In this document: piece by piece, positions 26,594 through 28,261 of the stretch
Position numbering within the stretch: the first letter of the stretch is position 1
How the letters are laid out: every line of letters begins with the position of its first letter
NCBI GenBank assembly: GCA_012295275.1
Contig: CM022673.1
Coordinates: 26,536,001 to 26,600,000 of the forward strand
Source of the DNA: Chrysomallon squamiferum
Lineage: Eukaryota > Animalia > Mollusca
Length of the DNA: 64,000 nucleotides
Direction of reading: 5' to 3'
Position numbers and translations under genes: made by a program
The notes under the pieces: model-generated
Seen by the model: only the letters and a program-made list of their open reading frames with translations
What the model was told of the DNA's origin: nothing
Database searches by the model: none

Positions 26594-27178
26594 TTTCGTT
26601 TCACGTTCAAGCTGAGTCTTTGTAGCTGAAATTTTCTCCAAATTGAATCACGTGTTTCCAGCACTTAATGTTGTGAATAGTTAAAGTAACAAAAAAAAAA
26701 TTAAAAATTAACAACATTTTAAAACTTTATTTTTTTTTTTTTTTATTTATAGAAATTAAATAACGTTGGTGTTGAGCGGTATTGTATGACACTATGTTAG
26801 AAAACGTAAAACAGGCTAACGTATCTTCTTTCAGTAAGTAGTTCTCGTCTGCTGTTAAAACATAGCTGGAAAAAAAAAGCGGGAAAAACGAGAAATTCAT
26901 TCAAATAAATTACAAGAAGTACGGTTGAAATTATTTTCTTATAATTAATGAATTAACTGCTATTCTTTGACATTATTGTTTAATACGAAAAAGTACATAG
27001 ATTTAAAAAAAAAAAAAAAAAAAAAAAGTTTTTTTTTTTTTTTTTCTGTTTTGTTAGTGTTTTCTTTTATTTATTTTTTTCTTAAATATTTTTCTTCTTC
27101 TTCTTCTTCTTCTTATTATTATTATTTAAACGGCACAAACATCATTCAGATTTACCATGTCTGAAATTATAATTAATA

Positions 27179-27184
27179 TTTATT
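27179..27184 (-). terminator. Poly(A) signal of the His-rich peptide gene
   Basis: AATAAA on the minus strand about 50 nt after the stop, followed by GU-rich TGAATGATGTTTGTGCCGTTT (27148-27128). Confidence 0.55.
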
Positions 27185-27235
27185 TTTAATAATAATAATA
27201 ATAATAATAATTTGTTACCGTTATAATATTCCCGT

Positions 27236-27399
27236 TTATCTGTCGCAGTGTTCTTCGTGATGGTGATGGTGTTCATCGTGATGGTGATGATGATGTTCTT
27301 CATGATGATGATGGTGATGATGATGATGATGATGTTCCTCATGACAGTGTTCATGGTGACAACATTTACAACATGCTTCACCCATGCCTATTAGAATCG
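27236..27399 (-). CDS. His-rich peptide exon 2
   Basis: 164 nt; mixed CAT/CAC His codons punctuated by in-frame GAA/GAG/GAT; TAA at 27238-27236. Confidence 0.8.
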
Positions 27400-27466
27400 C
27401 TGAAACTAAACAATGAATATTTTTTATTACGTAGATAAAATTTTCAAATGCTGTATTGAATGTAAA

Positions 27467-27540
<74 letters not shown>

Positions 27541-28037
27541 AGGATATATCTATAAATACAGGGAAGTCAAAATAAAAAATAGTTTCATCATACAGTAATT
27601 TTTATAAAATACGCTAGTGAAATTTATATAAAAATGAATTAAATGAAATTTAATTTTTTTTTTGGATAATAAACGATAAAATAAAAATACAAATCTAAGC
27701 CTGCGTAAATGTTACCTTTTTGAAATTAAGTATTATAATTTTTTTTTTTTTTTTTTTTTTTATCTTGTTAAATATATAGATTTAAGAATTAAAAAAAATA
27801 AAATAAAATAAAATAAAATAAAATAAATAAAAGGTGTCGATTCAAGTTTACTCGTTCTCTATTTTTATACTGTAACCGATTACGTATCCTAGCAACAGTG
27901 TCGTTCACCGTCTTGTTGTTAAATAATTTCACGTCACTAAATAGTTAGGACATATCTTATCTTAATTTTGTTGGTATGGGCAATCAGAGAAACAAGGAAG
28001 GACAGAGATAAATAGATAGACAGACAGACAAGTAATC

Positions 28038-28081
<44 letters not shown>

Positions 28082-28174
28082 TTATAAAAAGATAAATATC
28101 GATATTCATTTAAAAAATAATGTTTAAAGTATTTACTTACATATCAGCGAAATAAAAATCTTCGTCATATTCAT
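27236..28174 (-). CDS. Novel secreted His/Cys-rich peptide precursor (65 aa), two exons 28174-28141 and 27399-27236
   Basis: Spliced frame [71 protein letters not shown] donor at 28140, TTTAGTTTCAG acceptor ending 27400, phase-1 join restores a hydrophobic signal peptide; TATA, Inr and poly(A) signal all correctly placed. Confidence 0.8.
27469..27537. repeat. (CT)n microsatellite (intron of His-rich gene)
   Basis: Perfect CT run. Confidence 0.95.
28141..28174 (-). CDS. His-rich peptide exon 1 (signal peptide N-part MNMTKIFISLI)
   Basis: GCAATG start, 34 nt, perfect GTAAGT donor. Confidence 0.72.
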
Positions 28175-28225
28175 TGCTATTTTTTTGTTTTTGTAAATAA
28201 AAAAGCTAATGTTGTTTATGAAATT

Positions 28226-28261
28226 AACTTGATGTAAACAAACTGTCTGTGTTTTTATATA
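28226..28261 (-). promoter_or_regulatory. TATA box and Inr of the His-rich peptide gene
   Basis: TATATAAAAA (28261-28252), about 30 nt upstream of Inr-like TCAAGTT (A at 28230). Confidence 0.6.

Follow-up and report, generated by a model that had tools for sequence, protein, structure and literature searches.

A candidate two-exon gene for a secreted histidine- and cysteine-rich peptide within an apparent simple repeat of a probable vent-snail lineage

The locus and its gene model

Within the 64-kb stretch of DNA analysed here (the window), positions 27128-28261 of the minus strand have the layout of a small two-exon gene embedded in what appears to be a simple DNA repeat (Table 1). Read on the minus strand, the spliced frame is 198 nt long and open for 65 codons. 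All coordinates of the preliminary description held when they were retraced, including the TATA box, the ATG, both exons, the GTAAGT donor, the 741-nt intron, the TTTCAG acceptor, the TAA stop and AATAAA; its claim of an initiator about 30 nt downstream of the TATA box stood in part, as an A does occupy 28230, at a distance of 31 nt from the T of TATA, but the element matches the consensus poorly, with the TCA core alone fitting. The interval between the TATA box and the start codon is free of ATG. Translation would begin at the first ATG (28174), with a second in-frame ATG at 28168 that would give an 18-residue leader, and exon 1 encodes the basic n-region and the first half of the hydrophobic core. 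An alternative acceptor 6 nt upstream (exon start 27405) would keep the frame and add two residues, and the predicted intron contains (CT)n and (AG)n microsatellites.

Table 1. Features of the predicted peptide gene, its neighbours and the control array (window coordinates)
Feature	Position	Strand	Details
TATA box	28252..28261	-	starts at 28261; 87 nt upstream of start codon
Predicted transcription start	28228..28232	-	A at 28230; placed by spacing
Exon 1, coding part	28141..28174	-	34 nt; codons 1-11 and one further base
Predicted phase-1 intron	27400..28140	-	741 nt; GTAAGT donor at 28140, TTTCAG acceptor ending at 27400
Exon 2, whole	27236..27399	-	164 nt; ends in TAA
Exon 2, first part	27374..27399	-	rest of predicted signal peptide, ending Gly-x-Ala (hydropathy)
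Exon 2, predicted mature peptide and stop	27236..27373	-	45 residues (translation)
Predicted 3' UTR	27128..27235	-	AATAAA at 27184; GT-rich element near 27140
Multi-exon gene	2781-19246	+	tail long and rich in Pro and Ser; final coding exon found stops at about 19246
Rhodopsin-family GPCR	30924-32057	-	uninterrupted frame; GC 0.56 (window about 0.29)
INSIG exon	60248-60592	-	Pfam PF07281, E 1.7e-28
Imperfect CAT array, neutral control	52601-52690	-	reads as His interspersed with Tyr, Asn, Arg, Gln and Leu

Single signals are cheap in this DNA, because the window has a GC content of about 29% and abounds in microsatellites (139 tandem-repeat rows), with 97 occurrences of TTTCAG on both strands. 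TATA-like words are so common (314 in the 64 kb, both strands) that the TATA box alone carries little weight, and AATAAA is likewise weak alone, being common in the AT-rich DNA of the window. No Rfam match was obtained between 25500 and 31000. The core of the metal-response element occurs 18 times in the whole window and is absent from 26500-31000, so that metal induction has no support from the sequence. Read-through by selenocysteine insertion was rejected, as the exon 2 stop is TAA. The peptide gene is present in a single copy within the window.

The locus is intergenic, lying between a plus-strand gene of FERM type and a minus-strand GPCR. The early exons of the former encode what looks, from its motifs, like a FERM/band-4.1 domain, and one late exon, when scanned, gave no Pfam match; placement of the peptide locus inside this upstream gene was rejected on the position of its last coding exon found. 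The GPCR is 70% identical both to a protein of Gigantopelta aegis and to P0001, 57% identical to a protein of Haliotis cracherodii and about 43% or less identical to the other 66 of 69 matches. A tree of 18 rows, built from the window GPCR and 17 of the 69 matches picked to span taxa, makes it the sister of the pair of Gigantopelta aegis and P0001 with support of 98/98. This thinly sampled, single-gene result places the lineage likely near the vent snail Gigantopelta, the genome being likely that of a neomphaline snail other than G. aegis itself.

The predicted peptide

The leader is signal-peptide-like: it has Lys at position 5, its hydropathy over 8 residues peaks at 3.0, and Gly-x-Ala immediately precedes the first Cys. 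The predicted signal peptide is 20 residues long. The 45 residues that follow comprise 27 His, 8 Glu, 6 Cys, 2 Asp, 1 Lys and 1 Arg, a recount that agrees with the 27 His, 6 Cys and 10 Glu/Asp reported earlier. Potential metal ligands (His, Cys, Glu and Asp) thus make up 43 of the 45 predicted mature residues, with His at 60% and Cys at 13%. The Cys residues occupy positions 1, 2, 4, 5, 10 and 43, the first four forming an N-terminal CCKCC, and His runs of 11, 6 and 5 are separated by acidic pairs. Aliphatic and aromatic hydrophobic residues are absent from the predicted mature part, as are Gly, Tyr and Ala. Between the acceptor and the repeat lie nine residues of non-repeat sequence that complete the leader, together with CCKCC.

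The calculated mass is 5887 Da (5.9 kDa) and the calculated pI 6.36, while the calculated net charge passes from +13.0 at pH 5.5 to -7.6 at pH 7.4. AlphaFold2, run on the one sequence, was uninformative (mean pLDDT 61.7, pTM 0.14).

Gene or chance reading frame

Overall, the locus is probably a real gene, and a chance microsatellite frame is an unlikely source of the peptide. The 3.5 kb upstream, as far as the GPCR stop, holds 24 candidate first exons, of which the one adopted here is the best and, with its two ATGs and one donor, the only one with a full GTAAGT; its donor at 28140 is the sole GTRAGT in that interval. The same donor alone passes a two-exon secreted-peptide filter applied to both strands of the 64-kb window, the thresholds of the filter having been chosen after the candidate was known. 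Across 200 block-shuffled windows the mean number of passing donors was 0.115, and 9% of the windows had at least one; the 40-nt blocks break the His tract, which makes the His count an unfair test in this null. Grafting other 3.5-kb stretches of the window before exon 2 yielded a passing first exon with GTRAGT in 0 of 470 cases, with or without a TATA box, and in 43 of 470, drawn from 4 distinct exons, when looser donors were admitted and no TATA box was demanded, the 470 overlapping stretches being equivalent to about 35 independent ones. Both nulls, shuffle and graft, support the two-exon model and the signal-peptide-like leader that had been proposed. In addition, the TTTCAG acceptor of exon 2 matches TTTCAG acceptors of the neighbouring gene.

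The codons of the His tract point the same way. Nine of its 10 single-base departures from CAT are the synonymous CAC, whereas none of the 13 in the control CAT array is synonymous; its eight Glu codons lie two or more changes from CAT; and its 37 codons include no Asn, Tyr, Arg, Gln, Leu or Pro codon, unlike the control array. This test is nevertheless weak, because arrays elsewhere in the window that do not code likewise favour a single position (28 of 29 at 30223-30476 and 23 of 37 at 33452-33749) and because the CAC units may be duplicated copies. Coding-blind departures without linked exon structure, the mark of a neutral microsatellite, were not what was found, and the exon-linkage test is the stronger of the two.

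One feature of the model counts against a gene. The predicted intron is in phase 1, which is usual near leaders, but falls after residue 11, in the middle of the leader, where human introns are depleted (PMC7259759). Nor did the searches described below yield a homologue that would attest constraint.

Search for relatives

Homology searches were made with exon 2 alone as the query, exon 1 having contributed nothing. Among 5.8 billion proteins, none of 3 candidates of 29-93 residues matched at E up to 1 and none of 415 candidates of 94-2000 residues at E up to 10, while HMMER against 1.84 billion representatives gave no match at E 0.001 and the ESM Atlas no usable one. Pfam returned no family at E up to 10, NCBIfam a single match (E 5.2) and none to an Hpn model, and the PDB a single match, to a zinc finger (E 0.55). 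The product starting from the exon-2 ATG was absent by exact look-up. In a metagenome motif scan, none of the 119 hits among the matches listed ran on into a His-rich tract (at most four further His), and none of 604 pattern-matched stretches from GTDB genomes passed tblastn at E 1e-3. Two further GTDB matches were dismissed as chance, one of them hitting a stop and the other lying inside an unrelated bacterial protein.

These negatives are weak evidence, because composition correction and word filters blunt short, low-complexity, His-rich queries. Absence from the protein collection also says little, because the GPCR of the window is itself unlisted there; moreover, short spliced genes are often missing from annotations. 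A literature search, with most subscription journals outside its reach, produced no description of the peptide. The absence of a recognised family noted in the preliminary description thus persisted through protein, family, structure and contig searches, and the gene is likely a lineage-restricted orphan without a detected relative.

Likenesses to known systems

Metallothioneins are cytosolic and His-poor, consist of Cys to about 30%, spread through the chain as CxC/CC motifs, and have no leader. The molluscan members share with the predicted peptide a small size, metal ligands, Cys pairs and the want of a hydrophobic core, whereas the peptide has 6 Cys and 27 His in 45 residues and a predicted leader. 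Identity with a metallothionein was rejected on this composition, on the leader and on the absence of any Pfam family, and the contrast drawn earlier with this class holds. The His-rich structural proteins of mussels (preCol), Nereis and Glycera are secreted, coordinate metals through His and undergo pH-triggered change; they are domains of larger proteins or Gly/His-rich chains, whereas the peptide is a stand-alone 45-mer with a Gly-free mature part. Tick microplusin and hebraein have six Cys, as does the peptide, and they resemble the peptide in being small, animal and secreted, the last by prediction in the case of the peptide.

Microplusin stops microbial growth by chelating Cu via His, hebraein is an alpha-helical peptide bearing a short extension of His, and hebraein and clavanins are described as His-rich and pH-dependent (PMC5198042). 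The peptide, by contrast, is 60% His, has no hydrophobic core and has its Cys clustered. Identity with microplusin or hebraein was therefore rejected for want of a helical core, and of the analogues offered previously this one is weak, while Hpn fits in composition. In mussels, His-rich domains of about 20 mol% His sit on large proteins and switch state on a rise in pH, and His-metal coordination hardens the jaws of Nereis and Glycera, spider fangs and insect mandibles (PMC6477608).

By composition, the closest analogue of the peptide is Helicobacter Hpn, a protein of 60 residues with 28 His, as well as two pairs of Cys, that sequesters nickel, forms multimers and binds Cu and Zn in vitro (PMC4671568). 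Both are tiny chains of His runs with Cys pairs (28 His in 60 residues against 27 in 45 together with CCKCC), and no folded core is expected in either. A composition of Hpn type (about 45-60% His in runs, Cys pairs, fewer than 70 residues) is found in the peptide. However, Hpn is bacterial, intracellular and restricted to gastric Helicobacter (PMC4671568), whereas the peptide belongs to a spliced animal locus with a predicted leader and has both Cys pairs at its N-terminus. Homology to Hpn was not detected in NCBIfam or in the GTDB stretches, two tests that low complexity weakens and that may not have included an hpn locus or model. Membership of Hpn was rejected on location and host range, no homology having been detected.

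Published vent-snail data

Among the supplements of the scaly-foot snail genome paper, the sole 'histidine-rich' label found belongs to CsqKR_Scaf59_23.2, a vent-snail gene 21-fold enriched in the symbiont-holding oesophageal gland, with a 10-residue unit of Lys, Thr, Val, His, Glu and Ile repeated over residues 1-55 (PMC7142155). Although the one is labelled and the other is composed as His-rich, their repeat units are unrelated, and identity of the locus with this different gene was rejected. The low-complexity table of the same paper, which covers annotated models only, shows no unit like that of the peptide among 14 occurrences of HHH, 5 of EEH and 3 of HEE. The paper implicates the transporter MTP9 in metal handling (PMC7142155).

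A proteome of peltospirid shell and sclerite gave no motif match in its searchable supplements, the tables of which are described as accession and annotation lists, and its authors state that matrix components remained obscure (PMC11871041). As a separate observation, CsqKR_Scaf180_0.42 has His-rich units together with Asn, Leu, Arg and Tyr (PMC7142155) and resembles a translated microsatellite, like the array at 52601-52690.

Proposed function and alternatives

The reading we favour, to which we would give about an even chance, is that of a real, lineage-restricted gene whose secreted 45-residue His/Glu/Cys peptide sequesters transition metals outside cells. Metal binding and the role of the peptide are inferred from its composition and from the analogy with Hpn. 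Sequestration is preferred because a material scaffold would call for Gly, Ala or aromatic residues, and membrane action for a hydrophobic face, all of which the peptide lacks, and because its closest likeness is a known sequestering protein. Detoxification or mineral readings are favoured by the likely position of the lineage near the vent snail Gigantopelta.

Under the proposed mechanism, the predicted gene would be transcribed and spliced, and the peptide would enter the ER and be cleaved after Gly-x-Ala. Its six Cys would be oxidised, with CCKCC linking chains into oligomers. It would be cationic and soluble in acidic secretory granules and would deprotonate once in haemolymph, mucus or seawater, where the His runs and Glu pairs could chelate Zn, Cu, Ni or Fe. 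Such chelation would lower free metal and pack it for storage or shedding, so that the peptide would amount, in its action, to an exported Hpn arrived at by convergence.

The alternatives differ in whether a gene exists and in what it might do. A real secreted gene with a structural task, its product serving as a His-metal or disulfide cross-linker or as a nucleator of mineral, whether in periostracum, operculum, radula, sclerite or egg coat, is unlikely. The calculated charge switch and CCKCC would fit such a task, the pH switch of the mussel domains and the His-metal hardening of jaws, fangs and mandibles offer precedent (PMC6477608) and a peltospirid makes iron-sulfide armour (PMC7142155), but mussel His-rich domains have about 20 mol% His and sit on large chains, against 60% in a 5.9-kDa chain free of Gly, Tyr and Ala, and, as a weaker objection, the searchable accession and annotation supplements of the shell and sclerite proteome yielded no motif match (PMC11871041). 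Quite unlikely is the absence of any functional gene, with a CAT/CAC compound microsatellite lying behind an acceptor and a chance upstream exon, or with a dead or unexpressed locus. The lack of a homologue in all searches, the abundance of tandem repeats in the window, the position bias of compound arrays without selection and the 9% of shuffled windows that give some passing two-exon model all speak for it; against it stand the nine leader-completing, non-repeat residues and CCKCC between acceptor and repeat, the failure of every one of the 470 substitute upstream stretches to pass with a consensus donor, and a tract in which eight Glu codons lie at least two changes from CAT and the six residue types named above are missing from 37 codons.

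Least likely of these alternatives is a real secreted gene whose product works in immunity or in the control of symbionts, by Cu or Zn starvation of microbes or by membrane action at low pH. Microplusin, hebraein and clavanins provide models for it (PMC5198042), some defence peptides typically come from small genes of two exons with a phase-1 intron (PMC7259759) and two genera of the vent-endemic Peltospiridae house endosymbionts (PMC7895826). However, the calculated charge of -7.6 at pH 7.4 and the lack of a hydrophobic face argue against membrane attack, and the peptide has no family match and one copy in the window.

Extracellular sequestration would place known chemistry in a new setting, that of a secreted, animal and likely vent-associated peptide, as predicted from the sequence. 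The extracellular handling of high metal loads in vent animals is poorly explained, and a secreted peptide of 45 residues that offers 43 possible metal ligands can be made at low cost and put directly to the test. Were it real, it would stand as an exported equivalent of Hpn in an animal, as a candidate for the birth of a gene out of a microsatellite and as one of a class of genes that repeat masking and length filters would conceal; the peptide could also double as a compact metal-capture tag.

A bolder form of this sequestration reading, which we consider unlikely, is that the vent-snail lineage independently evolved an exported Hpn-like peptide by which vent metals are trapped outside cells and granules or armour of metal sulfide are seeded. 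As parts of it, a CAT microsatellite caught behind a signal-peptide exon possibly gave rise to the peptide, whose Cys perhaps trap sulfide too. If true, the peptide would be a missing protein component of peltospirid metal tolerance and mineralisation, one that escaped notice through its short length, its splicing and its likeness to a repeat.

Other features of the window

Elsewhere in the window, a 170-codon open frame in a GC-rich island (56345-56857, plus strand) has no Pfam match and is probably an exon of an unannotated gene. On the minus strand at 59443-59465, a second TATA-like word is accompanied by an ATG, a short hydrophobic frame and a phase-1 GTRAGT donor, an arrangement that failed the two-exon filter. 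Two minisatellites, with units of 35 bp and 32 bp and 11 copies each, occupy 9419-9811 and 35808-36148, respectively, and a near-perfect 59-bp duplication lies at 38058-38176.
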